Assembly (NCBI GenBank): GCA_014240385.1 | Contig: JAAZXA010000068.1 | Span: 29,090 to 93,089 of the forward strand | Direction of reading: 5' to 3' | From: Methanobacteriota archaeon | GTDB taxonomy: Archaea; Thermoplasmatota; Poseidoniia; Poseidoniales; Poseidoniaceae | Length of the DNA stretch: 64,000 nt | Shown here: piece after piece, positions 10,808 through 28,449 of the stretch | How positions within the stretch are numbered: the stretch's first letter is position 1 | Layout of the letters: every line of letters starts with the position of its first letter | Program-made: the position numbers and the translations under genes | The notes under the pieces: model-generated | Databases searched by the model: none | What the model was told of the DNA's origin: nothing | The model's input: the letters and a program-made list of their open reading frames with translations, nothing else

Positions 10808-10814
10808 GAGCGGT

Positions 10815-11389: not shown

Positions 11390-11405
11390 TGGCCGAAGTT
11401 GATAT

Positions 11406-11702: not shown

Positions 11703-11780
11703 GAGGGGTGGGAGACAGGTGGATCCTATAGGGATGGGATGCCAACAGGAGGTTGTGAACACCTGTCCCCCGTGAGCGGT
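11703..11780 (-). promoter_or_regulatory. structured leader (long stem-loop between ACCGCTCAC and the start codon)
   Basis: GGGAGACAGGTG (11710-11721) pairs with CACCTGTCCCCC (11760-11771), one mismatch, 38-nt loop; the stem abuts the start codon. Confidence 0.5.
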
Positions 11781-11785
11781 TTCTA

Positions 11786-12142: not shown

Positions 12143-12419
12143 GAGTGGTTAAGTCCCATACGCACACTTGATATCCACCTGATAGGATTCCTCCTCTAAA
12201 GGCGGAACCAACCTTCTTGAAACGCTTGTCTTTGGACAAACAGTTGCCGAGTTGTTGGCTTGTCGTCCCGTGCCTCATGGTTTCATTGATGTAATCTTGA
12301 ATTGCATAAGTTGGCTGGGGGCCGTTATCTTCTAGGTACTGGACTATCTTGATTCGTATTCTTTGTGTCTTCATGGAAATCACCCTACGGGGGTTCCCTT
12401 GATGAAGTCTTTGCTTCAT
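12108..12419 (-). CDS. putative winged-helix protein (103 aa)
   Basis: track ORF 12108..12473 trimmed to PM-ATG at 12419; IVQYLEDNGPQPTYAIQDYINE-type helix pattern. Confidence 0.6.
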   Translation of the reverse strand: MKQRLHQGNPRRVISMKTQRIRIKIVQYLEDNGPQPTYAIQDYINETMRHGTTSQQLGNCLSKDKRFKKVGSAFRGGILSGGYQVCVWDLTTHDEPNPLEEKN

Positions 12420-12429
12420 GAGCGGTAAT

Positions 12430-12684
12430 TTATGCCAGCATTCCTCCCAGCATCTTATCGAGTTCCATATCATCTTTCACAGTAACCCAATGGGCTGATT
12501 CTGTGCAGTATCTCTTGAGTACATTGGTTGGATAGCCGATTATGTCTACAATCTTCCATTTCGGTCCATCAAAATTTACCCAGAATAGAGCTTCTTCCGC
12601 ATCTATTCTGGTTTTGATGGCTTTTCCCGAAGGGAGTGTGTAGATCATTTGGTTTCCATTTGAGATTGCATACTTTGCTTTCAT
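12430..12684 (-). CDS. hypothetical protein (84 aa)
   Basis: track ORF; PM-ATG at 12684. Confidence 0.7.
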   Translation of the reverse strand: MKAKYAISNGNQMIYTLPSGKAIKTRIDAEEALFWVNFDGPKWKIVDIIGYPTNVLKRYCTESAHWVTVKDDMELDKMLGGMLA

Positions 12685-13075
12685 GAGCGGTGTTTTTTAC
12701 CTCATGGTAATAGATGATGTAATGCTCTGCGTAAAGCATCAATTCACCTTTCTTCCAAGACTCGTATTCATCTTTTGTTGGCTCCATCCATCCTCCGTTT
12801 TGGGCTTCGGAATGGTCTGCAACTGTTTTTGTTGTCTGTAAAGTCCAGCGTTCGAATTCGTCGTCTTCCTTTTGTTTATCTTGATGATAGTCTACGAGTT
12901 CATCGGACAAGTTGTGGTGTGCTTTCAGATATGTAAGCATCGTTGGGATGTTGGGGAAATTTCTCCCAATTGCCCAAGTTGCTCCGCATCCCGTGTACTT
13001 TCCTTCTCCTTCTTCCCATGTGTCTTCGTAAATTTCAGACATTATGCTAGTGCAATGAAATAATTTCTTTTCCAT
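12569..13075 (-). CDS. hypothetical protein (168 aa) reading through the next PM
   Basis: track ORF 12569..13111 trimmed to PM-ATG at 13075; no stop before the PM at 12682, overlaps the next gene by 116 nt. Confidence 0.6.
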   Translation of the reverse strand: MEKKLFHCTSIMSEIYEDTWEEGEGKYTGCGATWAIGRNFPNIPTMLTYLKAHHNLSDELVDYHQDKQKEDDEFERWTLQTTKTVADHSEAQNGGWMEPTKDEYESWKKGELMLYAEHYIIYYHEVKNTAHESKVCNLKWKPNDLHTPFGKSHQNQNRCGRSSILGKF

Positions 13076-13082
13076 GAGCGGT

Positions 13083-13268
13083 TTAATCGTATTCAAGTTC
13101 GTAATAGCCATGTTCTTTGATCTTCTCGAAGATGATTTTCAACTTCTTGACTTCTCTGCGAACATCGTGATAATCTTGTTTGGATAGAATACGACCATAG
13201 TACATTCTTGCTACTACTTCGAAGAGTATCTCAAAAGCCTCTTCTTCCGTAGGTATTTCTTCATCCAT
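13083..13268 (-). CDS. hypothetical protein (61 aa)
   Basis: track ORF; PM-ATG at 13268. Confidence 0.7.
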   Translation of the reverse strand: MDEEIPTEEEAFEILFEVVARMYYGRILSKQDYHDVRREVKKLKIIFEKIKEHGYYELEYD

Positions 13269-13280
13269 GAGCGGTTCCCA

Positions 13281-13733
13281 TCAAATGTGGGGGGACTGTG
13301 TATCTCCATCGATTGGCATCGGTTGAATGCTAATCCATTTCTCAGTCCTGTAATGCATGTGGTCGTATAGCCATTCTTTCAATGGCGTAATACCTTTGCC
13401 GTAGACTGAAAGGGAATATTGTTGCAAGATAAATCGCTTGCGTTCCTCTGCAGCCTTGAGGTCTGGCAGTAATTCGTTCCAGTAGCCAGCCTTCGCATCA
13501 CCCCATTCGAGGATGTAACCTCCAAATGGTTTGTCGATACGCCAGGCTACAATTCGAGTCCACATATTCCCAAATTCATGTTCGTTGTTTTCAATAGTAA
13601 ATATCACTGGACCCTCGACATCGTGGCCTCCTTCTCTTAGTGTTCGAAGTTCTGTATCTCGCAGATTGAGGTTTTCGTCTGGTGTTCCTGTGTATTCGTT
13701 TATTTCCATCGGTTTATTTGGTCTTTTAACCAT
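13281..13733 (-). CDS. hypothetical protein (150 aa)
   Basis: track ORF; PM-ATG at 13733. Confidence 0.75.
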   Translation of the reverse strand: MVKRPNKPMEINEYTGTPDENLNLRDTELRTLREGGHDVEGPVIFTIENNEHEFGNMWTRIVAWRIDKPFGGYILEWGDAKAGYWNELLPDLKAAEERKRFILQQYSLSVYGKGITPLKEWLYDHMHYRTEKWISIQPMPIDGDTQSPHI

Positions 13734-13740
13734 GAGCGGT

Positions 13741-13923
13741 TCAATAACATCTACATATAATGCATGTAGTTGAAAAATATTCGACTACTGGGCATTCAGG
13801 TAAGCATCTTTGCTCATCTGCGTTTAGATTGCCCCAGCAGTGTTCTTCTGCATATTCTAGGACTGTTTCGTAGTCATATCCCTCATCTCCATTAATGATG
13901 AGCCAGTCGTCTTTGTTTTGCAT
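13741..13923 (-). CDS. hypothetical Cys-containing protein (60 aa)
   Basis: track ORF 13741..13953 trimmed to PM-ATG at 13923. Confidence 0.65.
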   Translation of the reverse strand: MQNKDDWLIINGDEGYDYETVLEYAEEHCWGNLNADEQRCLPECPVVEYFSTTCIICRCY

Positions 13924-13931
13924 GAGCGGTT

Positions 13932-14006
13932 TCATTCGTAGGCACAATCGCATGTAGGATATCCTTCATCGTCGTACTCTTCTTCGCAGATTAGGCACCA
14001 GACCAT
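13932..14006 (-). CDS. Cys-rich micro-protein (24 aa)
   Basis: PM-ATG at 14006; MVWCLICEEEYDDEGYPTCDCAYE; stop TGA abuts the next PM. Confidence 0.45.
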   Translation of the reverse strand: MVWCLICEEEYDDEGYPTCDCAYE

Positions 14007-14015
14007 GAGCGGTGT

Positions 14016-15149
14016 TCAACTTGTCGAGACCCGATGAAAATTGGTAATCAGTCCTGCTTGAGAACTCCCTGTTCGAGCGTTCCAAGCCTTCTCTAATATC
14101 TTCTTATTCATTGAATGGTGGTAACTTGTCCTGTTCCATTGTTTCATGATGTGCTTGTAAAGCCCATCCGGGTCGTCATTGTAAGTTGAGAGTTCAAGAG
14201 CATCTTGATCCTGTTCCCAGACATTGTGTAATCCCCTGGCACTAGTTCCCCCAGCACCATCGGAACGAAGTAAATCCATCATTTCCTTGAAGGTAAATCC
14301 TGCAGCCTTACTGAATGGGTATGAATCTGTATTCCAGACCTTCTTCATGTGGTTTGCTGCCCAAGGCTTGTGTAGGTTGTTTTTCTTTCCAACTTTGATA
14401 AATCTTCCAGATTCACAATCCATAAGTTGCCGTAGCATGGCATTGAGTCTCCAACTAGTTGCATCTACGCATTTAGCACCAAGCATTGATGCTACCTTGG
14501 TTGCGTTCATTCCACCTGCGCCAAGAAGGAAGAAGTCTTTGTCTGCTTCTCTTAATTCTTGACTGGTGTTTAGAACGACATTCCAAAGTTTCGCCTTTGA
14601 GACGATGGTAGTTTCATTCTTGATGTCGGCATTTCCAATGCGATCCATTACTCTAAAAGTTGATTGAGCCAAATTACTACCGTAGCCAACCATAATGTCG
14701 TTGTCTATGTCGTATTGGTTCAAATGATGGATTGCTTCTTCTGCGTTCCTTCCGTGAATTACGGGTATTGTCTGCGGAATCTCTTCGTGCATCTCGCTAA
14801 ACCAGTCGCAACTTGTCTGTTGCCGTTCCACTACCTCATTTTCGGTGAGGCCTGTGAATCTCGGTATCGGGAAATCTGCTGCAATGATGATGTCATTGTC
14901 TTTGATTCCGATTCTCCTATGGTTTGCGACTAGATCTTCAACTTTGAATGTTGAAGCTAGTTCGGGATTCTGTAGGAAATTGAATCCTCCTGAATCCTTA
15001 GCGACTTGATGCTTTGTTGTGAACTCTTGATGGCTAAAGCCATCTCCGATTCTATCATTTATTGTGATGAGCATACTGTCGGTCAATTCCCTAACATCGT
15101 AGGGTCGTTTACCGATGTATTCTGCGTTTTCACTTGTAAAATTCTGCAT
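14016..15149 (-). CDS. tRNA-guanine transglycosylase-fold protein (DpdA-like, candidate DNA 7-deazaguanine transglycosylase)
   Basis: PM-ATG; FFLLGAGGMNATKVASMLGAKCVDATSWRLNA aligns by eye to the TGT motif LMGVGKPEDL..GIDMFDCV.PTRNA; IPVIHGRNAEEAI matches the TGT I.QG pattern. Confidence 0.55.
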   Translation of the reverse strand: MQNFTSENAEYIGKRPYDVRELTDSMLITINDRIGDGFSHQEFTTKHQVAKDSGGFNFLQNPELASTFKVEDLVANHRRIGIKDNDIIIAADFPIPRFTGLTENEVVERQQTSCDWFSEMHEEIPQTIPVIHGRNAEEAIHHLNQYDIDNDIMVGYGSNLAQSTFRVMDRIGNADIKNETTIVSKAKLWNVVLNTSQELREADKDFFLLGAGGMNATKVASMLGAKCVDATSWRLNAMLRQLMDCESGRFIKVGKKNNLHKPWAANHMKKVWNTDSYPFSKAAGFTFKEMMDLLRSDGAGGTSARGLHNVWEQDQDALELSTYNDDPDGLYKHIMKQWNRTSYHHSMNKKILEKAWNARTGSSQAGLITNFHRVSTS

Positions 15150-15157
15150 GAGCGGTA

Positions 15158-15550
15158 TTATTGTTCATACACGATCCATTCGTTCTGTTCTGTAGACCAA
15201 ACCCAATACTGGCCGTAGCCCTGCATGTGCCATTGCCCTGAACCGGGCGGCATTTCAAAGGGTTCCCCCCAACCTGTCTGTCCAACTGTCGAAGGTTGTT
15301 CGAACTGTTGCGCAGGTGCAGGGGTTAGATCTACTGTTCTTCGGCTTGGTATTGTTACTAGTACTGGTAGCCAGCACCAGACCGTTATCAACAGGTAAAC
15401 TCCGTAGAATACAGGAGAATGAACCCATTGGGGTAGGTCGAATTGTGGTATGTTGTAATTTTGTGTGTTTGCATAGTAGTATGCAATTCCGAGCAACACC
15501 AATATGATGCCCGATATTCTGCGAACTGCCATTCCAATTATGTTCGTCAT
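15158..15550 (-). CDS. membrane protein (130 aa, 2-3 TM)
   Basis: track ORF; PM-ATG at 15550; hydrophobic ILVLLGIAYYYA and VFYGVYLLITVWCWLPVLV segments. Confidence 0.7.
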   Translation of the reverse strand: MTNIIGMAVRRISGIILVLLGIAYYYANTQNYNIPQFDLPQWVHSPVFYGVYLLITVWCWLPVLVTIPSRRTVDLTPAPAQQFEQPSTVGQTGWGEPFEMPPGSGQWHMQGYGQYWVWSTEQNEWIVYEQ

Positions 15551-15576
15551 GAGCGGTGCGGGGTGGTTCGACTACT

Positions 15577-15912
15577 TCAAACCCCTGCGATTGCTTCTTG
15601 TATCAACTCCATTCTTTCAGCGAGGAGTTCTCTTGCGTCTATATCCACAATTGCTGATACATCGACCTTGCCACCTTCAACTATTGTTAATCTGGTTCTC
15701 GGTTTGATGTACAGTTTTTCGTCATCGTTTATTTCAACATGGAAATCACCTGATGTCGTCAATAATGCAATTGCTTGTTTCTTGTTATTCGCTAGGTCTT
15801 CAAACTCAAAGCGGATGTCGGTTCCGCAAGTAGATAGAAGGTATTCTTGCAGTTCCCTTTCGGAACCGTTCCATTCAATGATTTCGTCTCCTTCGATGTA
15901 TTTCAAGTCCAT
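15577..15912 (-). CDS. hypothetical protein (111 aa)
   Basis: track ORF 15577..15963 trimmed to PM-ATG at 15912. Confidence 0.7.
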   Translation of the reverse strand: MDLKYIEGDEIIEWNGSERELQEYLLSTCGTDIRFEFEDLANNKKQAIALLTTSGDFHVEINDDEKLYIKPRTRLTIVEGGKVDVSAIVDIDARELLAERMELIQEAIAGV

Positions 15913-15919
15913 GAGCGGT

Positions 15920-17191
15920 TCATTCCAGTATTTTCTGCATCTCCTTTTCGAGCAAAGCATCATTTCTTCGTGCTATGTGCTCTTTCATGGAGTATCGCAG
16001 ACCGTCATACTTGAGGCTGTTCAGCGTAGCCTTGCCAAGATTGGCAACAGGCTTACGCTCATACCAGTCTTTTCGCTTCATCATCTCGCCTGTAACGGGA
16101 TGAGGAACGATTTCATTTCCTTCTGGGCTTTCAGCGAGTTTCAACCATTGGAAGGGCATCAATTTCCATGCGCCTATCTTCTCAGTATATGGCTTGAATT
16201 CTTTCTTGTAGCCCGAAAGTCCTGATTTCTTATCGGGTTCTGGTGTCATCTTGTAAACATGAGTACAGTTAGGATCTTCGCACCATCCACTAGCCATAGG
16301 AGTCCTATGGTAGCCTCGGTTGCATCTACCTCCCTTGTTGAGAGGCATTCCATCTCTGTGCCATTTCTCATGCTTGTCTTCTGAGTAGAAGCGTTCTTCG
16401 ATTCCTAGAGCTTCTTGCAGCCCTATACCATCAGCGTCAATCAAACGGTCAACTTCCCATTCTTTGCAGAATGGACACCACATGCATGAACTCTTCTGGA
16501 CTGGGGAGCCATCTCCCCTGTAATCCCATCCAAGTATCTGCAACATGGCGAGGCATTCTTTCCTATTCATGTCCAATTCCTGGAGAGGATAGGAGTATTC
16601 ATGCCCTTTGACTTTGTTTTGACCGTGGTTTGCTGTGAATCTGTCAGTTCTTCCACCTTCGTTGGCTTCGATGCCAAGCATCCACCATTTTTCCGATACA
16701 GTATGGTCTCCAAAGGTTTCTTCTGCCCATTTCTGTTGGACATTTCCCTTGAATCTCATGCTGCAGGTATGTTGTTGTCCTCCAATTACTGGAAGCATTC
16801 CTCCATCCATCAACCATTCATAGATCTTGTAGACCTTTTCTCCCTTGGTGTAATCATCCTTCTCTGATTTGGGCAAACTTCTCCATTCTTCATAGCGGAG
16901 TTCTTCGCCTGTATCATTGTGATGATAAACGGGGATTGTGTGTCTAACGGTAACTACTGGCAAGCCTACTTCTGCGCATCGCTTCTCTGCGTATGCAAGG
17001 TTTTCGTAGGTTTCAGGCCATTCGCTACCGGGATCCGAGAATACGGCTGCAACGAATGGAGGAAACTTTTCGTCTAGTTCTTGTCGAGTTATCCCCAACG
17101 CTTCGGCTGAGGTGTCTCTGTCTAAGTGCATGGCTAGAAGGGCTGTTGAATCAACCCCTACGCCAAATGATAACAAGTCTATTCGTTTCAT
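15920..17191 (-). CDS. PAPS reductase-like protein with degenerate PP-loop (423 aa)
   Basis: track ORF trimmed to PM-ATG at 17191; LLSFGVGVDSTALL in place of SGGKDS; SSCMWCPFC Cys cluster as in phage PAPS-reductase/DndC-like proteins. Confidence 0.55.
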   Translation of the reverse strand: MKRIDLLSFGVGVDSTALLAMHLDRDTSAEALGITRQELDEKFPPFVAAVFSDPGSEWPETYENLAYAEKRCAEVGLPVVTVRHTIPVYHHNDTGEELRYEEWRSLPKSEKDDYTKGEKVYKIYEWLMDGGMLPVIGGQQHTCSMRFKGNVQQKWAEETFGDHTVSEKWWMLGIEANEGGRTDRFTANHGQNKVKGHEYSYPLQELDMNRKECLAMLQILGWDYRGDGSPVQKSSCMWCPFCKEWEVDRLIDADGIGLQEALGIEERFYSEDKHEKWHRDGMPLNKGGRCNRGYHRTPMASGWCEDPNCTHVYKMTPEPDKKSGLSGYKKEFKPYTEKIGAWKLMPFQWLKLAESPEGNEIVPHPVTGEMMKRKDWYERKPVANLGKATLNSLKYDGLRYSMKEHIARRNDALLEKEMQKILE

Positions 17192-17198
17192 GAGCGGT

Positions 17199-17954
17199 TT
17201 ATTCCATAGATGCAATCTTTTGCTCTATGGCTGTGTGCTTTCGAAAGATGCTTAGGCATCTAATTCGTGTGTTTGGGCCACAGGTGATTGATACCACACC
17301 ACATCTTGTTGCCCCTTTGGGCTGAATGTAAACCAAATGGTGTAAGGCGAGGAGATATCCTCCTGGCTTTAGCACCCTGATGGCTTCTTTGACCCATGAA
17401 TAGGGCTTGATGTATTCTGTTTTCCATAACTTGTCGGAGTAATCTATCTTGACTCCGTCTGTTGTTTGCATGTCGTAAGGTGGATCTGCAATAACCATGT
17501 CGTATGAATCAGTTTCAATAGGGAACTGTTGTCTGGCATCAGCTACGAATGTAGGATTATTCGCTTCGCTAATGTCCATTGTGTCTTCATTCTCCCTTCC
17601 TTGGATGCTTCCCGAGAATAGGTGTAATACCTTGGTTTCATCGGTGACTTCCATTAGGGCGTCTACTCTACGAAGGAACCCATTTGGGTAGGCTCCCTTG
17701 TATTTCGCCATTGGTCGGCCACAAGCCCACCCTAGACGGAGTGATTTTTCCGTCATGTGGGTCAATGAGGCGTCTTTCTGTTTCAATTTGTTGTAATGCC
17801 TAGCGATTCGATGAATCGTCCCTTTCGAAACTGTTTCACCAATCCTATCGCCTGCCATCTTAGCAGCATCGTCATACGAGTTATTGCTAAGATCGTTGAT
17901 TACTTGCATATGGTCTAGCAATTCAACCTTTCTTCCTTTCAATGTTAAGGACAT
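17199..17954 (-). CDS. DNA methyltransferase (N6-A/N4-C type) with N-terminal HTH
   Basis: PM-ATG; motif I VLHLFSGS, motif IV MVIADPPYD. Confidence 0.75.
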   Translation of the reverse strand: MSLTLKGRKVELLDHMQVINDLSNNSYDDAAKMAGDRIGETVSKGTIHRIARHYNKLKQKDASLTHMTEKSLRLGWACGRPMAKYKGAYPNGFLRRVDALMEVTDETKVLHLFSGSIQGRENEDTMDISEANNPTFVADARQQFPIETDSYDMVIADPPYDMQTTDGVKIDYSDKLWKTEYIKPYSWVKEAIRVLKPGGYLLALHHLVYIQPKGATRCGVVSITCGPNTRIRCLSIFRKHTAIEQKIASME

Positions 17955-17961
17955 GAGCGGT

Positions 17962-18249
17962 TCAGTCTTTCATATCTTCGACTGCTGCTATCATTTGATA
18001 GAAGCGAGCATTCCTTTGATTGGGGCTCCCCATACCATACTCGTGTCCGTAGATTAGAGGGGTACAGGCCTTGTGCGTATCAGTTAGATGTTTTTCAATT
18101 TCATCAAGAGATACCCCTGCTTCCAATAGGAACTCGGTCCAGTTGCTAAATCTTTCATAACCATCGTGCTTTCTCAACATTCTCAATGATTGTTTCCATC
18201 GTTTCAGATCTGCTTCTTTGTCATCTGTCGTCATTTCTATTTCTGCCAT
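17962..18249 (-). CDS. hypothetical protein (95 aa)
   Basis: track ORF; PM-ATG at 18249. Confidence 0.7.
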   Translation of the reverse strand: MAEIEMTTDDKEADLKRWKQSLRMLRKHDGYERFSNWTEFLLEAGVSLDEIEKHLTDTHKACTPLIYGHEYGMGSPNQRNARFYQMIAAVEDMKD

Positions 18250-18256
18250 GAGCGGT

Positions 18257-18532
18257 TCAGTAATATTTTCTGTTTTGTATCAACCATTCCCATACGAGGG
18301 GTATTCTTTCCCTCATTTGTGGGTTTTTGCCGAATTTAGCGAGGTATTCAATGTATTCTTCAAGGTATGGGATTAGGTCGCTTCTTTCAATCCCTGCGTC
18401 TTGTAGAAGTTCCTCTACTCCTTCCAATATTGTGATTAGTGATTTGTAGCATCCCACTTGTTTCAAGTAGGTAATTGCCTTCTTTGTCTCACCAACCGGT
18501 TTAATGGTTGCTGCGGTCATAAATTCTGCCAT
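18257..18532 (-). CDS. hypothetical protein (91 aa)
   Basis: track ORF 18257..18679 trimmed to PM-ATG at 18532. Confidence 0.7.
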   Translation of the reverse strand: MAEFMTAATIKPVGETKKAITYLKQVGCYKSLITILEGVEELLQDAGIERSDLIPYLEEYIEYLAKFGKNPQMRERIPLVWEWLIQNRKYY

Positions 18533-18543
18533 GAGCGGTGGGG

Positions 18544-19476
18544 TTATTCTGTTCCACATTGGTTCGGGCATACCCCGCAAGTTGTTACGCATCCGATAGC
18601 CCATGAGTCCTTCTCTCGATAGGGATCCCCATGGAAATACAATGCTCCTGCGGTTTCTTTCCGACTTTTCTTGCTCCAATCCGCATAACTGTGGGCCTTA
18701 TCGTAGGCAGTTTTGTCTACATACGGCCATCTTGGGTCATTAGGTTCCATCTTCCATGGTGTTTCAATAATTCTCCAATTGTTCTTCTTTGCGGTGTCTG
18801 CAAAATATTCCTGTGCTTCCCAGAGTAGCCTTCCTTCTTCTTGATTTGCATCGAATAAGAAGGTACACAATCTAATGAAAGTGTTTTCGTGTTTTGTCAT
18901 TCGATTGAACTTCTGCAGTGTCTGGATAATTCGCCTTGATCTCGATGAGACTTCGGGGTGTTCATCATATCCAGGAATGACCGACCAGTGTATTTTTACA
19001 CCTGCGATAGCCATTCGTGTCAATGTTTCTTCCGAGGGTATTTTCCAAAATTTTGTGATTACAACGGGAGTTAACCCAGTCTCGGCAATTATTTCTGCCG
19101 TTGCTGCGGTCAAGTCCCAATCAAATGATGGATCACCCATTACCCCGATTCTAACCCATCGGATTTTCGGTTCGTTCCAAATTAACTGCATACAATCCCA
19201 TCGAAGTAAGGCGGGATTCAGGATTTGCGATACTGGTATGTCGAAATCAATTCTCCCGAACATTACTCCTTGAGAATTCTTTGCGTAACAACCAGAACAT
19301 CTTCCTGCGCATCCCTTAACCGTATCACAGATGTTGGCATCTGTCTTTGTGTTGCCCCCAAGTCTGATTTCCTTTGCTTCATAGGGCCGTAGTGGCGCTC
19401 CTGTTGAAGTGTGGGTTTTTCTTGGACTGAGGGCAATTTTCGGTCCAAATCTTCGTTTGGTTTTCTGTATAGCCAT
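18544..19476 (-). CDS. CxxxCxxC (radical-SAM-like) enzyme (310 aa)
   Basis: PM-ATG; VKGCAGRCSGCYAKN carries C-x3-C-x2-C; family assignment not verifiable here. Confidence 0.45.
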   Translation of the reverse strand: MAIQKTKRRFGPKIALSPRKTHTSTGAPLRPYEAKEIRLGGNTKTDANICDTVKGCAGRCSGCYAKNSQGVMFGRIDFDIPVSQILNPALLRWDCMQLIWNEPKIRWVRIGVMGDPSFDWDLTAATAEIIAETGLTPVVITKFWKIPSEETLTRMAIAGVKIHWSVIPGYDEHPEVSSRSRRIIQTLQKFNRMTKHENTFIRLCTFLFDANQEEGRLLWEAQEYFADTAKKNNWRIIETPWKMEPNDPRWPYVDKTAYDKAHSYADWSKKSRKETAGALYFHGDPYREKDSWAIGCVTTCGVCPNQCGTE

Positions 19477-19491
19477 GAGCGGTTTGTTGGT

Positions 19492-19716
19492 TCAGCAATG
19501 GACATAGCCCTTGCGAACCTTTTCCTCTACTTTCTTCTCGATGAAGCTGAGAGCTTCTTCTGCAGTTCCGAAGTTTCGGGGTTTGGCCTTTTGGCCTTTG
19601 CTGCCGATTCTCCCCCATGATACCCACACAATATCTTCGAGTGTGGTTTCATTGTCTGCTTGCCAGAACTTGTGGGAGTTCTCTTCTTCATCATGGTATT
19701 CCATGTATACTCGCAT
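19492..19716 (-). CDS. WGR-domain protein (74 aa)
   Basis: PM-ATG; HKFWQADNE...VWVSWGRIGSKGQKAKPRNFGTAEEALSFIEKKVEEKVRKGY matches the WGR pattern (FW...WGRIG..GQ...A...F....K..KGY). Confidence 0.6.
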   Translation of the reverse strand: MRVYMEYHDEEENSHKFWQADNETTLEDIVWVSWGRIGSKGQKAKPRNFGTAEEALSFIEKKVEEKVRKGYVHC

Positions 19717-19768
19717 GAGCGGTGTCGATTCTCATTATTACTGAGTTGCAATAGTGCCATGAGCGGGC

Positions 19769-20035
19769 TTAATCATCGTAGCCTCTATCTGAATTGTAAA
19801 TGCTAGCGAACTCGCTGAATATTCTTTCGGTATCTCCTAGATCTCCAAAGTGCATCAGCAAGTTCCATGCATTCCATACTTCACCTGAAGGAGAATTGTT
19901 GATTGCTCCCCCAATTTGTTTTACTTCGATTTCGCCATTCTCGGCTGCTTTGATGCCAGCCGCTAGAAAGTCCTCGACCAAATCAACGGCTTTCTCTAGC
20001 GAATCCTCTTCCAATTTTCCAATGTTCAATGACAT
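19769..20035 (-). CDS. hypothetical protein (88 aa)
   Basis: track ORF; PM-ATG at 20035. Confidence 0.7.
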   Translation of the reverse strand: MSLNIGKLEEDSLEKAVDLVEDFLAAGIKAAENGEIEVKQIGGAINNSPSGEVWNAWNLLMHFGDLGDTERIFSEFASIYNSDRGYDD

Positions 20036-20045
20036 GAGCGGTGAT

Positions 20046-20486
20046 TCATTTGCGAATCAGCCAGTTGAAGAATAACTTCTCGTCGTCTGCCAAGTGATAT
20101 TGGCATACGGTGAGGAATCTGTCGTGTCCTTCAAACCATCTTCGATATTGTTCTTGAATCCAAGTGTCAGAAGCGCAAGCGATAATTTCGCTTCGGTTCT
20201 GCTTTGCGTATTTCCAAAGATTCTTGGGTTTCATGTCCACGAAGTTATCGTCTGTTATCATAATCACGATTTCAGCGAATGGAAAGAGTGTTAGGGATTT
20301 AATGCTTACCATTTCCTCGAGTGTTCGTTCATCAAATCGGCAGGCTGGGTGAGTTGCATAGAACTCAGCAAAACCAGCCGAACCATTATTCATGTGCCAT
20401 TTCTCAATGAGCATTTCTAACGACTTGTAGATTACTCTGTCGAGCAGTTTTCCTGCTTCTTGTATTTGTTCAACGAATGTTGTCAT
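20046..20486 (-). CDS. hypothetical protein (146 aa)
   Basis: track ORF 20046..20516 trimmed to PM-ATG at 20486. Confidence 0.75.
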   Translation of the reverse strand: MTTFVEQIQEAGKLLDRVIYKSLEMLIEKWHMNNGSAGFAEFYATHPACRFDERTLEEMVSIKSLTLFPFAEIVIMITDDNFVDMKPKNLWKYAKQNRSEIIACASDTWIQEQYRRWFEGHDRFLTVCQYHLADDEKLFFNWLIRK

Positions 20487-20512
20487 GAGCGGTTGTTTTT
20501 GCCGAGGGTATT

Positions 20513-21271
20513 TCAAGCCTTCTTCTCAACCCAGTTAGCGAGTTCACGCATCATTTCGTTCCTAACGCTGTTCAGGGCGGCATTTACCACCCTGATTCCG
20601 GTTTTCAAACTCTTCCGGTGCGCCTCGCTGTTAAATGTGTTATCTGCAGCCTGTAGTTGAGTTTCAAGAACTCTTGATATTTGGGACTCCAAAGCCCCAT
20701 TGAGTGTTGAGTACCCTTGGGCTTCGTAAGTTGAGCCAAAGGGGTTTACTTCTTCTCGGTTTTCCCTAACACGAAATGTGGCTTCCTTACGATTTCTACT
20801 GATTTCTTGTTTGATCCAGTCTATATCGTTGTACCAAACATCTCGGTTTTGCCTGCCATTAATGAACAGGCGAGGGTACCAACGGTGGCCGTATTGTGAT
20901 ATTATTTCAACTTCACAATATTCTCGGTGGTTTTCGTTGTTTTTATCATAGCCCCACCTTTTCCATTCTTTTCGGAAATTGGGTAGGTGTCTGCTGACAC
21001 CCCCTCCAAAACCTGAGTCTTTGGTTGAATAGGATAGGCTGCTCAAATATCGTTCTTGATCCGTTCTAGCCACGCTAATTCTGGCGTAGTTAGAGCGGCC
21101 AAATGATTTTGGGTATTTGATTTCGTAAACATCCGGGTTCAGGTAAACACCATGCTTGTTGTAGGTATGGTATTTCGTATTCGTACAACCTTCCTCTTTC
21201 AAATTCTTTTCGAAAGGGCAGGTGTATGGGATTACTCCCTCAACCGGTAATTTCCATTGCATTTCTGCCAT
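20513..21271 (-). CDS. hypothetical protein (252 aa)
   Basis: track ORF; PM-ATG at 21271. Confidence 0.75.
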   Translation of the reverse strand: MAEMQWKLPVEGVIPYTCPFEKNLKEEGCTNTKYHTYNKHGVYLNPDVYEIKYPKSFGRSNYARISVARTDQERYLSSLSYSTKDSGFGGGVSRHLPNFRKEWKRWGYDKNNENHREYCEVEIISQYGHRWYPRLFINGRQNRDVWYNDIDWIKQEISRNRKEATFRVRENREEVNPFGSTYEAQGYSTLNGALESQISRVLETQLQAADNTFNSEAHRKSLKTGIRVVNAALNSVRNEMMRELANWVEKKA

Positions 21272-21280
21272 GAGCGGTGT

Positions 21281-21832
21281 TTATTCCTCTTTTGAGAGGA
21301 TTGTTGTTGTTGAGTTCACCCAGTCTTGCCAGTTGTCGTCAAAAACGACTGTTCTCTCGACTGCGTTAACACAAACATATCCGTGAACGCTTGATTCTGT
21401 AGCGAATCCTCCGTATTCAGCGTAGATTTGTTGTGCAAACAAGTTTCTAACCTCCGTGGGTTCTTCCATTTCTTCTGGTGGAATTTTTCTGTAAGAGCCA
21501 TTCTCACCGTTGAAATCGTATGTGCGAACTGCTCCGTTGTCTTCATCATAGTCATCAGTTCCAATTAGAATCACCAAGTCTTGCTTGAGTGTTGGCATTC
21601 CATCTTTCTGTTCCCATTTCTTAGTCTCGGGGTTTAGATATGTTCCTTCTCCAACGACCAAGCCCTCTTTGAAGGTCTTGTGACCTTTGCCGATTATAGC
21701 TTGGATGTCGTCACAATATCCTTCATCGTGACCTCCGTTGAAATTAACGGTTATCTGTTCGTAGCCTAATTCTGTCATTCTGTCCATTAGGGCATTCCAA
21801 TCTTCTTCTGGTATCACACTTTTTGTGTTCAT
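21281..21832 (-). CDS. hypothetical protein (183 aa)
   Basis: track ORF 21281..21856 trimmed to PM-ATG at 21832. Confidence 0.75.
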   Translation of the reverse strand: MNTKSVIPEEDWNALMDRMTELGYEQITVNFNGGHDEGYCDDIQAIIGKGHKTFKEGLVVGEGTYLNPETKKWEQKDGMPTLKQDLVILIGTDDYDEDNGAVRTYDFNGENGSYRKIPPEEMEEPTEVRNLFAQQIYAEYGGFATESSVHGYVCVNAVERTVVFDDNWQDWVNSTTTILSKEE

Positions 21833-21842
21833 GAGCGGTGTC

Positions 21843-22385
21843 TCATCCAAAGACAACTTTTCCCATTGTTATGCATTGAAGCATTACATCGGAAGTAATT
21901 GCATCGCCAGATTCGCTGACGAAATCTTCGAAGTGCCTTTGGTAACTTTCAGACATTGTTTGAAGTCCAGATTCAATGGTCTGTTGATTGACAACTCCGA
22001 GAACCTCTGCGTATATCCAGTCATCCTTCTCTTCACTCCATTCTCTCGATTCTAAGTCGTAAATGGTGATCTCGCCTCCCAAGAATGGGATTTGGTGATG
22101 GTAGATGTATCGCTTATTTTCTCTAAGCCAGTCGAAATCTTCTTCACACTTCTTTCCGTAAGGTAAGAAATTAGTTTCTTGGTGGTGTGAATTTTTATGC
22201 TCAACTAATCGTCTTGCGTTCTCCTCTTTGATTAGAGGGTCTCCATGATTGATTCGTGCGCATCCTGCGTGGTTTGTTACGCTTGATCTAGCCCAGTAAC
22301 CTGAGCCTCCTTCAAACGCACCACTAAGGCACGACCATGTATCTCTGTCTTCAACTTCTTTTTCGATAGTAACATTGTACTTCAT
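21843..22385 (-). CDS. hypothetical protein (180 aa)
   Basis: track ORF; PM-ATG at 22385. Confidence 0.75.
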   Translation of the reverse strand: MKYNVTIEKEVEDRDTWSCLSGAFEGGSGYWARSSVTNHAGCARINHGDPLIKEENARRLVEHKNSHHQETNFLPYGKKCEEDFDWLRENKRYIYHHQIPFLGGEITIYDLESREWSEEKDDWIYAEVLGVVNQQTIESGLQTMSESYQRHFEDFVSESGDAITSDVMLQCITMGKVVFG

Positions 22386-22400
22386 GAGCGGTATATGGTT

Positions 22401-22904
22401 TCATTCTGTGTTTGGTTCCCAATCGTCGAAGGTAACCTTTGTCGGTTGGCTTTCGCTCCATGATTCACCATGAACCTCAATCTTGATATCTTCAATCTTG
22501 ATATGTTCTAGGTTTGATTGGACGCACCAAACACCGTGGACTCCCATGTTCTCCGTGATACTGACTCTCCACAATTTATTGTGTAGTTTCACAATGTATT
22601 CGTAGGATTCGTGTATTGAATCTTCAACTGGGGGGAATCTGTCTGTGCTTGTGAAGCTTAGACTGCTTTCGCAGTTCCATGCGTTGTGTAGCACAAGGAA
22701 CTCTTCTTCACCGATATTATCGGATGATGAGAAGGTCCAAGGTATGAGTTCATCATATTCTTCTCCTGCCCACTCCCATTCTGGGTCATTTTTTTCATAT
22801 GGGTTGGGGCATCCCTCATACCATATCTTTCCTTCATGTCGGTAGTGGGTTCTTCCCGGGTAGTATTCGTTCAGAAGTTCTTCTTCTGCTGGTGTATATT
22901 CCAT
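22401..22904 (-). CDS. hypothetical acidic protein (167 aa)
   Basis: track ORF; PM-ATG at 22904. Confidence 0.75.
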   Translation of the reverse strand: MEYTPAEEELLNEYYPGRTHYRHEGKIWYEGCPNPYEKNDPEWEWAGEEYDELIPWTFSSSDNIGEEEFLVLHNAWNCESSLSFTSTDRFPPVEDSIHESYEYIVKLHNKLWRVSITENMGVHGVWCVQSNLEHIKIEDIKIEVHGESWSESQPTKVTFDDWEPNTE

Positions 22905-22948
22905 GAGCGGTGTTATTTGGATCAGTTATTCTAGATCTTCGGTGGTTC
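22902..22948 (-). repeat. 47-nt gene-junction repeat, copy 1
   Basis: CATGAGCGGTGTTATTTGGATCAGTTATTCTAGATCTTCGGTGGTTC; near-identical to 27797-27843. Confidence 0.85.
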
Positions 22949-23137
22949 CAGCCCGTACACTACATGAGTAATCCTGATTTGGATTTCTCCTTCACAGTTG
23001 TTGCAGAAGTAGTAGTAGGTGTCGTGTTCGACGCTCTCCGTGTCTAGATCGCCGTCATCTTTGCACCAGGGGCATTCTCCGAATCCTTGCGGATCCAGTT
23101 CTTCTCCCACTTTGATGCTAATCTCTTTTGATGTCAT
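22931..23137 (-). CDS. zinc-ribbon protein (68 aa)
   Basis: track ORF; PM-ATG at 23137; CPWC...CNNC. Confidence 0.7.
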   Translation of the reverse strand: MTSKEISIKVGEELDPQGFGECPWCKDDGDLDTESVEHDTYYYFCNNCEGEIQIRITHVVYGLEPPKI

Positions 23138-23160
23138 GAGCGGTGTTTTGAGTCTAAACT

Positions 23161-23349
23161 CTAAACAATGTAGGTGCCTAGGGCTACTGCTGCAGTAAGT
23201 ACAACGAAATTTATCGCTACCATGAGGGCGAGAAACGATCCACTTCGGGCTGTCTTCTTTTCCTCAATGTACTCATTCAATGCTGTTGTGTTTCCCTTCA
23301 CGATTAGGTTGAAGGTTTCTGTTGGCATACAAACTGTTTTGTCAGTCAT
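23161..23349 (-). CDS. small membrane protein (62 aa, C-terminal TM)
   Basis: track ORF 23161..23370 trimmed to PM-ATG at 23349; FLALMVAINFVVLTAAVALGTYIV. Confidence 0.65.
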   Translation of the reverse strand: MTDKTVCMPTETFNLIVKGNTTALNEYIEEKKTARSGSFLALMVAINFVVLTAAVALGTYIV

Positions 23350-23366
23350 GAGCGGTAGTCGTCCCG

Positions 23367-24494
23367 TCACTTGAGTTCGGTTACAGCGTGAAGGCTGACC
23401 GTGTTCAAATTTGTAGTTTCATGGTACAATATTAGTTGCTTCGATTTGAAGCCTAACCATAATTGTCCCTTTCTGTCTGTAGGGGCGATTAAATCATTCA
23501 GCGTGTCTGTACACACGGACAACGATGAAACCTTCTTTCTGATGGCAACTTCGTCGGTGTCGAATTTCAATCTGAATACTTCGCCATCCTTCTTGCTGCC
23601 ATTGTAGGCTACCATTGTAAGTTCTCCGTTTTGTGTTCCCTCGAAGTAAACCCTCGAGGTCAAGGACGCTGCTGTTTTCACATGTCCAGCAAATTCTTTC
23701 AAATCAAGGATTTCAACATTGTAATCCTCTTCGTCAAATGTTGGAATTTCAACCCTATAGCCCTTATTGGCGTAGGTTGTCGAGTAAGGTTCATATTTGA
23801 CCTTCTCTGATTCCATCGAAAAAGTGTATTCGATTCTGTCGCCGGTTTCCTCTTTGAGGTGGAATGTCAATTCCTTTGAGTTCCTGGCAGCTTCAGCAAT
23901 TTTCTTGTTGCTTGATTCTGCGCCGGTACTTAACCGGAATGGCATGTTTTCAATAACAACGGGTGTGCTATCCTCTGCCGCACATGTTAATCTCCACTCA
24001 AGTGCTGATGTGGATCTGTAGTGCGATGTCTTGGATTGCTTCCCAATGCCATTGAAGTCCATTATTGAATCTGCGGCGTATTCTCCTGCGGATAATTTCT
24101 TATCAATGATTGTGAATCGTTTAACCGATTCGGAATCGAGTGTTATTGCGAATGATTTGGTTGAATTAGGGGTCATCCCGGCACTATCCCTACGGGCGGC
24201 GGCGGGGTGTTTTGGTCTATATTCAACCGGTTCTTCGTCATCCTCTTCATCCTCTTCATCATCTTCTTCATAGATGTCTGAGTCATTGATTTGTTCCCAT
24301 TCTTCATCCGTGATTAATATTGAGTCATCTTCTTCATGTTCATCATCTTCTTCGGATAAGGAGTCATTAACTCCTGTGAATGATTCTGGATCTGTGTCCT
24401 GTTCTGTCTCTGATTCACTTGCGCCCAGTTTCTCTTCCGATACTCCTAGTGATTCGGCAAGTAATCTTCGGGTTGTTTCCCAATCTAGAGTCAT
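23367..24494 (-). CDS. hypothetical protein with poly-acidic N-terminal region (375 aa)
   Basis: track ORF 23367..24587 trimmed to PM-ATG at 24494; EEDDEEDEEDDEE run. Confidence 0.75.
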   Translation of the reverse strand: MTLDWETTRRLLAESLGVSEEKLGASESETEQDTDPESFTGVNDSLSEEDDEHEEDDSILITDEEWEQINDSDIYEEDDEEDEEDDEEPVEYRPKHPAAARRDSAGMTPNSTKSFAITLDSESVKRFTIIDKKLSAGEYAADSIMDFNGIGKQSKTSHYRSTSALEWRLTCAAEDSTPVVIENMPFRLSTGAESSNKKIAEAARNSKELTFHLKEETGDRIEYTFSMESEKVKYEPYSTTYANKGYRVEIPTFDEEDYNVEILDLKEFAGHVKTAASLTSRVYFEGTQNGELTMVAYNGSKKDGEVFRLKFDTDEVAIRKKVSSLSVCTDTLNDLIAPTDRKGQLWLGFKSKQLILYHETTNLNTVSLHAVTELK

Positions 24495-24705
24495 GAGCGG
24501 TACAGTATCTTTCCCCCGGTTGCGCAGGACATATTTCCAATTCAACCGTGTCGGTATCAAATCTGTGTTCTCTGCCACAATGTCCACATTCCAAACGCCA
24601 GTCTACATCGTAGATTTCAGCTCCCAGTATTCTTGGGTGTTTGATTTTGGATAATGGCACCCATATTGTAGGAAGTCTTGCTTGCAGGATATCTAATTTG
24701 TCCAT
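24415..24705 (-). CDS. zinc-ribbon protein (96 aa) reading through the next PM
   Basis: track ORF; PM-ATG at 24705; CGHCGREH; overlaps the next gene by 80 nt. Confidence 0.6.
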   Translation of the reverse strand: MDKLDILQARLPTIWVPLSKIKHPRILGAEIYDVDWRLECGHCGREHRFDTDTVELEICPAQPGERYCTAHDSRLGNNPKITCRITRSIGRETGRK

Positions 24706-24717
24706 GAGCGGTGCGTG

Positions 24718-25596
24718 TTAAACGCGTCTTTTGATAGCCTCATTAACTGACTTCAACCTTTCAAGGAAAGTGTCGAGGTTTTCGATTGTGTCGTCAAATT
24801 CGTTCACAATCTCGATAATTTTCCTCTCCATCTTTTTCTCCTTTACGAAGATGCTTACCATTTCAGGGGGGTCTTCACTTTGCTGGACTTGTGCTGGCAC
24901 AGGTCCTGTGGATTTCTTTCCCTTTTCTTTGCGGTGTTCAGTAAACGGTTCTATTCCGTCTTCATCTACCCAAATGGTTTCCTTCTCGGTATGCAGGATA
25001 TCCGTTTCAATGAGTCCTTCGTACATCGGCTTTTCATCGTCGTATTCTTCGATTAACTCATTTTGTAGTTCGGATTCTAATACATCCACGAAGTTTGAAT
25101 CTAATTCACGAACTTCTGTGGTTTCTTCGGTTTCCTCTGCATCTGGAACGGGTTCGGAGCAATCGAAATTACTTGAGATGTAGTCTAGCATTGCTTGTTT
25201 GGGGTCTTTCCCCTCAGCAATTGCTTTTCCTGCTACATCGAAAATATTCTCTGAATTCTCTAGTACCTGTTCGTTGTCCTTGACCCATTCCAATGCCAAT
25301 ACTTCTTGCATTAATTCTACAATGTCGGCTGGAGGGTCTTCGGGCTCTTCGGTAGTAGGTTCCTCTTCGGTTTCAGTCTCAACCTTGACTTTTGGTTCTG
25401 AAAACTTGGCTGTAAGGTAGGACGCCATTTCAAATCTCCTCTTCTGGGATGAATCGATGTCGTTAAACTGTCCTCCATCGATTGCATTGTTGAGGTAATC
25501 TTCGGCGGCTACCATGTGCCGGTCTCTCCACCCTTCGTCTGTTAGGTCGGTTAATTTGTTTATCACATAGTTCATATCATCTATGATCTCTTGCAT
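24718..25596 (-). CDS. hypothetical highly acidic protein (292 aa)
   Basis: track ORF; PM-ATG at 25596. Confidence 0.75.
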   Translation of the reverse strand: MQEIIDDMNYVINKLTDLTDEGWRDRHMVAAEDYLNNAIDGGQFNDIDSSQKRRFEMASYLTAKFSEPKVKVETETEEEPTTEEPEDPPADIVELMQEVLALEWVKDNEQVLENSENIFDVAGKAIAEGKDPKQAMLDYISSNFDCSEPVPDAEETEETTEVRELDSNFVDVLESELQNELIEEYDDEKPMYEGLIETDILHTEKETIWVDEDGIEPFTEHRKEKGKKSTGPVPAQVQQSEDPPEMVSIFVKEKKMERKIIEIVNEFDDTIENLDTFLERLKSVNEAIKRRV

Positions 25597-25606
25597 GAGC
25601 GGTTCA

Positions 25607-25813
25607 TTATTCCATTATCCTCACGAAACTTCCGAATGGTTTGCGGCATTTAGCGTGAATCCAAAGGTTCTTGGTGATGCTCAATTGGCTTCCGGGCTTA
25701 TTCTTCATTGAAATTGCCCTTTCTCCTTTTGTCATCAATTCTCCACACCATACGCAAATTTGTTGTTCTGTTTGTGAGGTTCTCCATACAATTCTGTCGT
25801 GTATTTGGGTCAT
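25607..25813 (-). CDS. zinc-finger protein (68 aa)
   Basis: track ORF 25607..25879 trimmed to PM-ATG at 25813; CVWCGE...HAKC. Confidence 0.65.
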   Translation of the reverse strand: MTQIHDRIVWRTSQTEQQICVWCGELMTKGERAISMKNKPGSQLSITKNLWIHAKCRKPFGSFVRIME

Positions 25814-25823
25814 GAGCGGTTGT

Positions 25824-26096
25824 CTATGGCAATGGTGCAACCATTTGAGCCATAGGTGGGCTTGGCGGAACAATCTCAATTAATCCTTCAATGCCTGTTG
25901 CAAGGGCTAAGAGGACCTTTCGGTGGATGGTTAAGCGGTGGATTAATTCGTCCAATACATCTGCGCCTTCCAACTCTGCTATGTTTTCCGCCAGACCATT
26001 AGTTGGATTCCACCTGTCTTGGTGCTTTTCCATTAGGTCTGCTTCGTATTTCACTAGGTCAATTCCTAGTAATTCGTGTTGATATTCTTCTAACAT
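25824..26096 (-). CDS. hypothetical protein (90 aa)
   Basis: track ORF; PM-ATG at 26096. Confidence 0.7.
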   Translation of the reverse strand: MLEEYQHELLGIDLVKYEADLMEKHQDRWNPTNGLAENIAELEGADVLDELIHRLTIHRKVLLALATGIEGLIEIVPPSPPMAQMVAPLP

Positions 26097-26340
26097 GAGC
26101 GGTTCTTTTCATTCCAGCGGGGGATGTTTCGTCACCTTGAACTTGAGCCGACCCCCATCACTTGATTCTTGCCTACAAGCAGTGGGGAGGTATCTTTCAG
26201 TGGTGGGCGAGTATCGAGCCCCTTGTTTCAAAGAACCCGGTTATATCATTGGTTGTCTCCTTTCGAGTTTCTTCGGTGTCGTCCAAGGATTGGACACCTA
26301 CTTTCTCTACTTTGGACTGCAATAAGTCCCCGTGAGCGGT
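26097..26340 (-). ncRNA. non-coding island C
   Basis: opens with TGA-ATACCGCTCACGG (26332-26340), conserved hairpin at 26275-26298, closes with PM-ATG at 26096. Confidence 0.4.
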
Positions 26341-26342
26341 AT

Positions 26343-26711
26343 TCACAAATCTCTGTCCAGCAGTAAGGACCTTAATTCACTCCAACAGTCTTGGATTGCT
26401 CCAGGGTCGGTATGTCCTTCAATTGGCCTTACTTCTGCTAAGATTGTGCTGATTAGGTCTCTTACTCGTTCATAATCTACAGTTTTGATTTCATTGTATG
26501 CATCGGCAATCTCATTTTGAATCGACTCATCGATAAACGATGATGTTGCGTCCATAGCGAGCGTTTGCAATATTATCTCTGCTGCTGATTCGGGTAAAAT
26601 CCAAATCGTTTTGGCGTGTCTTTTGCCGAGGTCGATGTAATCGACTCCTTCCTCTAGTTCATCTAGTCTTTTGGCAAATTCTTTTCCATCTACAAGATCT
26701 TCTCTTGGCAT
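26343..26711 (-). CDS. hypothetical protein (122 aa)
   Basis: track ORF 26343..26750 trimmed to PM-ATG at 26711 (CATGAGCGGA). Confidence 0.7.
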   Translation of the reverse strand: MPREDLVDGKEFAKRLDELEEGVDYIDLGKRHAKTIWILPESAAEIILQTLAMDATSSFIDESIQNEIADAYNEIKTVDYERVRDLISTILAEVRPIEGHTDPGAIQDCWSELRSLLLDRDL

Positions 26712-26753
26712 GAGCGGATTACACAAGTTAGGTGTTTCAAACTGGGGCATCGT

Positions 26754-27338
26754 TCATCCTCCACGGATGCACTCCAGTTCGCACCTTTCCCATGCTTTCT
26801 CTGAGATTCCGAGTTCCATAGCCTTCTTTCGGCTCTTTTCCTCATCCATCTCCCATTCATCTTCGTTGTGCCATACGATGTAATCTGACATGTTTCCGTC
26901 TTCTACTTCTTCTCCGTTTACCCACCAACCCCAGAAATCCATGCCGGCTTCCATAAAGGAAGCATCGACTTCGAATCCGTTGTTGTATAGGTGTTCATAG
27001 ATTGGGAAGGTAGGACTCCATGCTGAATCAAATCTGATTTCCAGTATGTTTTCGTCTGGGTCTAAATGGCAATGAGTCCGTCCGTAGTTGTTTTCGTCAA
27101 CTTCTGCGGGTATGGCCCATTTGGTTCCCCAATTGTTCACATTCCAATTTCTCCACCAAGTCGGGTCGCTATGAAGCTCCTGCTGTGATGTTTCATATTC
27201 ATCACGGTAAGCAGGTGTGTCCGGCGGTGGGATTAGGAATTGGAACAATCCAGTTTCCTTTGTTGCTTTTTCTATTTCAATTAATTTCTGTCTATCATCG
27301 TGTTTGATGATGACATGGTTGTTTGTCCAATTAGGCAT
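26754..27338 (-). CDS. DUF1281/Api92-like protein (194 aa)
   Basis: PM-ATG; MPNWTNNHVII...NWGTKWA pattern recalled from the MPNW...WGTKW plasmid/phage family (from memory). Confidence 0.55.
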   Translation of the reverse strand: MPNWTNNHVIIKHDDRQKLIEIEKATKETGLFQFLIPPPDTPAYRDEYETSQQELHSDPTWWRNWNVNNWGTKWAIPAEVDENNYGRTHCHLDPDENILEIRFDSAWSPTFPIYEHLYNNGFEVDASFMEAGMDFWGWWVNGEEVEDGNMSDYIVWHNEDEWEMDEEKSRKKAMELGISEKAWERCELECIRGG

Positions 27339-27346
27339 GAGCGGTT

Positions 27347-28146: not shown

Positions 28147-28155
28147 GAGCGGTTT

Positions 28156-28443: not shown

Positions 28444-28449
28444 GAGCGG

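Follow-up and report, generated by a model that had tools for sequence, protein, structure and literature searches.

The WGR domains (Pfam PF05406) of PARP2 and PARP3, represented by PDB entries 6f5b, 6f1k, and 2eoc, are strongly basic modules that bind discontinuities in DNA. In PARP2, W151 stacks on the 5'-terminal ribose, R153 and N127 hold the 3'-side phosphate, K130 and Y201 bind the 5'-phosphate, Y132, K179, and K183 make backbone contacts, and Q159 touches the complementary strand; stable binding to broken DNA is lost on most alanine or phenylalanine substitutions of these contact residues (Obaji et al. 2018, PMC6294510). Here we analyze a WGR mini-protein encoded on the minus strand at 19492..19716 of a 64,000-nucleotide stretch of contig JAAZXA010000068.1 (assembly GCA_014240385.1, positions 29,090 to 93,089; hereafter "the window"). 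In contrast to its PARP counterparts, the mini-protein has neither regulatory and catalytic domains nor a disordered N-terminal region, totals 74 amino acids, has no insertion before the last strand, and is net acidic. We tentatively propose that it is a small DNA-binding protein, belonging to a block of genes marked by a common start-codon motif, that recognizes DNA discontinuities and serves the DNA-modification or anti-restriction program of a phage.

WGR domains have been described in several other settings. Among the stand-alone bacterial and metagenomic forms, a group that includes the N-terminal domain of Bacteroides fragilis Q64V53 (PDB 2ra8), most are basic, unlike the window protein. 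Jumbo phages (PBECO4/Asteriusvirus; gp71 of 0305phi8-36) likewise encode WGR proteins that are regarded as DNA-binding, but these are about 310 to 323 residues long with an additional region, are only marginally similar to the window protein, and lie among RecQ/RecJ-type genes or hypothetical proteins rather than modification genes; Iyer et al. 2021 (PMC7824862) count WGR as one of the DNA-binding domains that jumbo-phage transcription factors carry. In WGR-ligase and LPD29-WGR-WGR-methyltransferase fusions, the domain is coupled to a DNA enzyme within one chain, whereas the window clade shows the coupling as neighboring genes, the WGR domain being a separate polypeptide whose downstream partner changes from genome to genome.

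A single WGR domain with the contact residues of PARP2

The gene encodes 74 residues plus a stop codon, comprising one WGR domain and nothing else. A Pfam search places PF05406 over residues 1 to 72 (profile positions 1 to 73 of 79) at 66.3 bits, against a gathering threshold of 22, and so upholds the proposal of a first-pass annotation, made from the sequence, that the product is WGR along its full length. The structural match that it had anticipated is also seen in the predicted model, an antiparallel sheet packed on one helix that is superposable on solved WGR domains. The signature residues W34-G35-R36 (codons at 19609..19617, minus strand) are invariant in close homologues, and on alignment to PARP2 and PARP3, W34 and R36 correspond to PARP2 W151 and R153. 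Single-sequence and profile alignments place N13, K16, W18, W34, R36, Q42, K62, and K66 on PARP2 N127, K130, Y132, W151, R153, Q159, K179, and K183, that is, eight of the nine PARP2 residues contacting broken DNA are matched by identical or conservative residues, all of them invariant across the seven close homologues except Q42 (serine in P0003). PARP2 Y201 probably has its equivalent in the invariant C-terminal K69-G70-Y71, and judged from these alignments, the DNA-break-binding surface appears intact. The identity of the domain, its fold, and the conservation of its contact residues are established by these comparisons.

Six close homologues with 54 to 99% identity were found in a word-indexed collection of 5.8 billion proteins, each of them 70 to 84 residues long and consisting of WGR only; relatives of the gene come from marine assemblies, one of them a Tara record. 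Pairing the window gene with five orthologous genes gives ratios of nonsynonymous to synonymous substitution rates (dN/dS, Nei-Gojobori) of 0.16 to 0.52, and the gene is under purifying selection. Both the window protein and its homologues begin with MRVY, and Met5 is excluded as the start because some homologues have leucine at that position. Public gene calls nevertheless begin at Met5, giving a 70-residue product (P0001/P0282), and the exact 74-residue product is absent from the records for that reason. We also considered a fragment or pseudogene of a larger WGR protein and ruled it out, the close homologues all being 70 to 84 residues long with matching start and stop context.

The window protein and its close relatives have isoelectric points (pI) of 5.1 to 6.8, with a charge of about −7 in the N-terminal half and about +5 in the C-terminal half; the median pI is 9.6 among 61 stand-alone WGR proteins of 90 residues or fewer and about 9.8 for PARP2/3 WGR segments. 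A C-terminal His-Cys (..GYVHC; residues 72 to 74, 19492..19500, minus strand) is kept in most close homologues alongside invariant H8 and H15, and a metal site at these residues is conceivable.

The Pfam search of the mini-protein shows no PARP regulatory or catalytic (ADP-ribosyltransferase, ART) domain, and no PARP/ART or other effector domain occurs among the 81 block proteins, which makes a classical sensor-effector pair unlikely; the first-pass annotation had suggested a sensor or a decoy. DUF4132, which follows WGR in MolR-like proteins, is absent from the mini-protein and from the block, and no ligase family is present among the 81 block proteins, so that the adenylation and OB domains fused or adjacent to WGR in WGR-ligases are lacking. 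Polyvalent proteins are giant and combine LPD domains with enzymatic modules; the 74-residue protein has no such architecture, which we find only in a distant relative (L004, below). PADLOC defense models match neither the WGR protein nor its immediate neighbors.

Recurrent linkage to DNA-modifying enzymes and distribution of stand-alone WGR proteins

The adjacency to DNA-modifying enzymes that had been noticed in the window is real and recurs in relatives beyond chance. Immediately downstream, 15 nucleotides past the WGR stop codon, lies the gene of a 310-residue radical S-adenosylmethionine (radical-SAM) enzyme (18544..19476, minus strand) with an invariant C56-x3-C60-x2-C63 and a C-terminal C300-x2-C303-x3-C307. 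Sequence searches with this protein gave nothing, and its identity comes from structure prediction only, the closest fold being spore photoproduct lyase. Spore photoproduct lyase is a radical-SAM enzyme that acts on DNA, and we regard the neighbor as a putative functional partner of the WGR protein. An identical 310-residue protein is on record from an NCBI/ENA contig of 128,049 bp, presumably the source genome.

In the contigs that carry relatives (L001 and so on), we find the WGR gene in at least five different gene orders, with a different upstream neighbor in each and a downstream neighbor that also varies. The gene that follows encodes the radical-SAM enzyme resembling spore photoproduct lyase in the window, L007, L008, and L012; a DndC/BrxP-like PP-loop enzyme, 65% identical to window 2909..3856, in L001; an N6_N4 methyltransferase, 67 to 71% identical to window 29593..30480, in L002 and L003; a Dam methyltransferase, 54% identical to window 5479..6354, in L009; and a 160-residue homologue of window 2397..2900, the gene immediately after the DndC-like one in the window, in L006. 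Taking the six known modification genes among 81 block genes as background for the five junctions, the binomial probability of a modification gene at three or more is 0.0036; with the radical-SAM enzyme counted too, that for four or more is 0.00026. Two further viral lineages, both with ordinary Shine-Dalgarno spacers, show comparable associations. The closest gene upstream of a 105- to 114-residue WGR protein in L010 and L011 is a Mom-like DNA-modification gene (phrog_1384, E = 2.6e-31), and L004, from IMG/VR, encodes a 1,070-residue polyvalent protein in which LPD29 is joined to two WGR domains and, at the C terminus, to a DNA methyltransferase (phrog_15406, E = 4.5e-48). The recurrence of the linkage is thereby established.

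Contrary to what the first-pass annotation had supposed, a solitary copy of the domain is not in itself unusual, since small stand-alone WGR proteins are common by metagenome counts, by JGI names, and by jumbo-phage annotations. An exhaustive phmmer search of 1.84 billion cluster representatives returned 362 matches at E ≤ 1e-3; of the 150 best, about 35 have no more than 130 residues, and the remainder are tandem WGR arrays or fusions. A profile search gave 869 relatives, many of them 68 to 120 residues long, a size range with hundreds of metagenomic copies, and "predicted DNA-binding WGR domain protein" is the JGI name on many relatives. One 75-residue marine form has 264 cluster members and occurs on at least 586 contigs. 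In sequence, the nearest relatives are either tandem-WGR proteins or fusions in which WGR is joined to an ATP-dependent DNA ligase, a nick-sealing enzyme. Partner domains in 111 multidomain relatives comprise ATP-dependent DNA ligase (8), SUKH (7), PARP (4), DUF1963 (3), and ankyrin (3), and more rarely DUF4132 (2), BRCT (2), and LPD29 (1).

The 75-residue marine form (L016 to L019; for example, GCA_902615935.1, CACMQU010000016.1, 3670..3897) sits in a conserved cellular operon with RmuC, in the order 134-residue gene, WGR, 101-residue gene, 530-residue gene, RmuC, and 192-residue gene, flanked by a PD-(D/E)xK protein and a large helicase. This operon is an uncharacterized cellular repair or defense-like module, whereas the window subfamily stands beside modification enzymes.

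All members of the window subfamily (at least 54% identity) that were found lie on phage-like contigs of marine origin, and none turned up in a GTDB species-representative genome. At default thresholds, searching 50,697 deposited phage genomes with DNA and with protein gave no match; at E ≤ 5 the only matches are marginal ones to larger jumbo-phage proteins, several of them annotated as WGR-domain proteins (tblastn E 0.05 to 0.5). Annotated WGR proteins already exist in Asteriusvirus-type jumbo coliphages, and hypothetical protein ORF071 (gp71) of Bacillus phage 0305phi8-36 contains a WGR-like match. IMG/VR scans with close-family patterns yielded a single distant locus or none, one metagenome scan and one genome scan yielded distant relatives only, and a literature search for "stand-alone" WGR gave no result. 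The protein belongs to a known kind, the stand-alone WGR DNA-binding proteins; modestly new are the acidic subfamily and its recurrent place immediately upstream of diverse DNA-modifying enzymes.

Start-codon motif and gene content of the block

The block to which the WGR gene belongs is marked by CCGCTCATG, present in 88 copies against 0.36 expected. Eighty-seven of these are on the minus strand (150..39077) and one is on the plus strand (56404); the motif is otherwise absent from the plus-strand block at 42 to 54 kilobases (kb) and from 54 to 64 kb. Essentially all minus-strand genes of the block start at the ATG within the motif, and 82 of the 87 copies have an A at −1 relative to the hexamer, giving ACCGCTC-ATG, with no Shine-Dalgarno-like run. 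The motif corrects mechanically assigned starts of open reading frames (ORFs), for example at 18532, 17191, 20486, and 24494, and some copies (31581, 30858, 28515, 14006, and 9107) open ORFs of only 21 to 32 codons. At the WGR gene itself, ACCGCTC-ATG (19714..19723, minus strand) takes the place of a Shine-Dalgarno sequence and marks membership of the 87-gene minus-strand block; it also precedes the WGR orthologues in L001, L002, L003, and L006.

An extra copy of CCGCTCATG lies 42 nucleotides upstream of the WGR start (19758..19766, minus strand) and opens an out-of-frame ORF of 77 codons (19527..19760, minus strand) that overlaps the whole WGR gene in another frame. This copy is confined to window-type contigs (L007, L008, and L012) and is missing upstream of the WGR gene in L001, L002, L003, and L006. 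We rejected the ORF as a gene, since conservation in L001, L002, and L006 extends neither to the ORF nor to its motif-led start; the alternative frame across the WGR gene is closed in L001 and L002, and going by these comparisons the ORF is probably not a gene. The upstream copy of the motif may be a relic start or a translational decoy or competitor start.

Lineages differ in the heptamer linked to the start codon, which is ACCGCTC-ATG for the window type (L001, L002, L003, L006, L007, L008, and L012), ACTGAAC-ATG at four of five genes of L005, ACTGATC-ATG in L023 and L024 (seven of eight genes in L023), and CCTGATC-ATG at one of two gene starts of L009. The shared skeleton is A-C-Y-G-M-W-C-ATG, with C in first position in L009, and always creates CATG. 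More distant WGR-bearing contigs (L004, L010, L011, and L013) have ordinary GGAG-type spacers. These sequence patterns suggest a co-evolving trans-acting factor (an RNA-binding protein, nuclease, or guide) or, alternatively, a site acting at the DNA level. A literature search for the motif returned unrelated primer sequences only. The motif and its lineage variants are much more surprising than the WGR gene. A separate peculiarity of L010 and L011, both marine viral contigs, is a common terminal peptide, G(L/I)LNWW, on unrelated proteins (for example, MKLGLLNW..., ...RYGLLNWWNF, and ...ALGILNWWGSL), which might serve as a signal for targeting or processing.

This single 39-kb block is unusually rich in DNA-modification genes: it encodes four DNA methyltransferases, drawn from different families, and two PP-loop proteins of PAPS-reductase-like type with a resemblance to DndC, SspD, or BrxP (2909..3856, 5479..6354, 7247..8209, 15920..17191, 17199..17954, and 29593..30480, all on the minus strand). 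Two of these genes belong to the context of the WGR gene: 17199..17954 encodes a 251-residue DNA methyltransferase (phrog_3816, E = 5.4e-21) with a weak, sub-threshold match to Pfam N6_N4_Mtase (E = 5.7e-05, 23.6 bits, cutoff 26.7), and 15920..17191, whose start is set by the motif at 17191, encodes a PAPS-reductase-like PP-loop protein of SspD/DndC-like type (phrog_424, E = 3.4e-24; PADLOC SspD, E = 6.6e-5). Elsewhere in the window, a plus-strand block (42486..53449) with positive GC skew contains glycosyltransferase-like genes, including one of 839 residues at 44592..47111; a serine recombinase/invertase gene lies at 57564..58385 (minus strand), and tRNA genes for Arg-GCG and Lys-CTT lie at 55297..55371 and 59081..59156 (minus strand). 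The glycosyltransferase-like, recombinase, and tRNA genes are all without the start motif.

Proposed role and alternatives

In the role that we tentatively favor, the WGR protein would be a product, presumably an early one, of the motif-marked block of 87 minus-strand genes in an uncultured marine phage, and its canonical WGR surface (N13, K16, W18, W34, R36, Q42, K62, K66, and probably Y71) would bind nicks, gaps, or 5'-phosphorylated ends, much as the WGR domains of PARP2 and PARP3 do with DNA discontinuities. Having no catalytic or signaling domain of its own, it would be an accessory to the DNA-modification or anti-restriction program, tethering an adjacent enzyme (radical-SAM, PP-loop, or methyltransferase) to phage DNA or guiding it there, nascent nicked DNA being one example of a target; in another version, it would cover breaks during DNA modification. 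We propose break binding because of the conserved residues and the partnerships of the domain with ligases and PARPs, and the two grounds for the modification program are the gene linkage and the L004 fusion. DNA binding itself, a preference for breaks, and cooperation with the neighboring enzymes are what we infer from these. A bolder version, which we consider unlikely, makes the mini-protein a portable, enzyme-independent DNA-targeting subunit that would recognize nicks or 5'-phosphate ends in phage DNA, whether replicating or just injected, and recruit whichever modifying enzyme adjoins it (radical-SAM, DndC-like, Mom-like, or methyltransferase) before host restriction acts; if true, such a subunit would add a "reader", not described before, to the components of phage DNA-modification systems.

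Several observations weigh against the favored role. A net acidic subfamily is unusual for a DNA binder, and the match of Y71 to the 5'-phosphate ligand Y201 is inferred only, PARP2 carrying an insertion at that place. The linkage is drawn from only five or six junctions, all on short metagenomic contigs; the phages concerned are related and have many modification genes in their early regions, and clustering of anti-restriction genes could produce adjacency without physical cooperation. Distant stand-alone copies in L013 and L023 have no recognizable modification neighbor. For a control set, we searched IMG/VR with a back-translated WGRIGxxGQ pattern, which gave 81 loci including about 25 true WGR genes of 61 to 388 residues, and we scanned with Pfam 41 non-redundant neighbors at positions ±2 of roughly 20 other IMG/VR WGR genes. 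None of the 41 matches methylase, PAPS-reductase, or radical-SAM Pfam families, although Pfam also missed the radical-SAM enzyme of the window. They do include ResIII/SNF2/DEAD helicases, Toprim primases, an ATP-dependent DNA ligase, an RNase T-type exonuclease, an HsdR protein, and a CobT/VWA protein. In L074, a 98-residue WGR gene (637..933) overlaps by 4 nucleotides the start of a 327-residue ATP-dependent DNA ligase gene (930..1913), a split version of the WGR-ligase fusions. Judged from this control, viral WGR genes generally accompany DNA replication and repair enzymes, and what ties WGR to modification enzymes is particular to the clade of the window and a few others, not shared by viral WGR generally. 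A 77-residue IMG/VR "WGRIGxxGQ" family was rejected from the WGR proteins, its members being zinc-ribbon proteins with scores of 15 bits only.

The unusual acidity of the subfamily, together with its retention of the basic DNA-contact residues, would also fit an anti-defense decoy or inhibitor, an inert acidic WGR domain that competes with host break-sensing, defense, or repair proteins or caps phage ends or nicks. The block is rich in genes of anti-restriction type (the four methyltransferases and the two DndC/SspD/BrxP-like proteins), L004 contains the LPD29-WGR-methyltransferase polyvalent fusion, and cellular stand-alone WGR genes lie in repair or defense-like islands with RmuC, PD-(D/E)xK, and helicase genes. 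Polyvalent proteins were reportedly suggested by Iyer and colleagues in 2017 to be delivered with incoming DNA against host defense. We nonetheless consider this explanation doubtful, there being no PADLOC or anti-defense similarity. The literature's default label would instead make the protein a sequence-specific transcription factor of the MolR-like WGR class that regulates phage genes, perhaps the modification genes downstream, as jumbo-phage WGR proteins are classed with phage-encoded transcription factors (PMC7824862). Its small size, its place in the motif-marked and presumably early block, and its position on the 5' side of variable enzyme genes are all compatible with such a function. 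Regulation of this kind is improbable, however: WGR-DNA structures read DNA structure in the form of breaks, not base sequence (PMC6294510), the 74 residues hold no helix-turn-helix or other sequence-reading element, the DUF4132 of MolR-type proteins is absent, gene spacings of 9 to 15 nucleotides leave no promoter-sized gap before the downstream gene, and sigma-70-like sites are fewer than in shuffled sequences.

Binding to RNA, for example, to motif-bearing early transcripts (ACCGCUCAUG), strikes us as the most remote of these explanations. WGR has been described as RNA-binding in some contexts (review, PMC7470946), and close homologues (at least 41% identity) are found only on contigs with the start-codon heptamer, but shared ancestry explains that co-occurrence, the conserved residues match PARP2 contacts to DNA breaks, and the fusion partners all act on DNA.

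Taken alone, the gene is an ordinary member of a widespread family of small WGR DNA-binding proteins. Its interest lies in the genetic coupling of a WGR module to at least five chemically different DNA-modifying enzymes in one marine phage clade and, independently, in two other viral lineages, which hints that recognition of breaks or nicks directs or protects DNA modification. If confirmed, this would assign a function to a very abundant, uncharacterized class of prokaryotic and viral WGR proteins and connect it to the role of WGR in eukaryotic PARPs.
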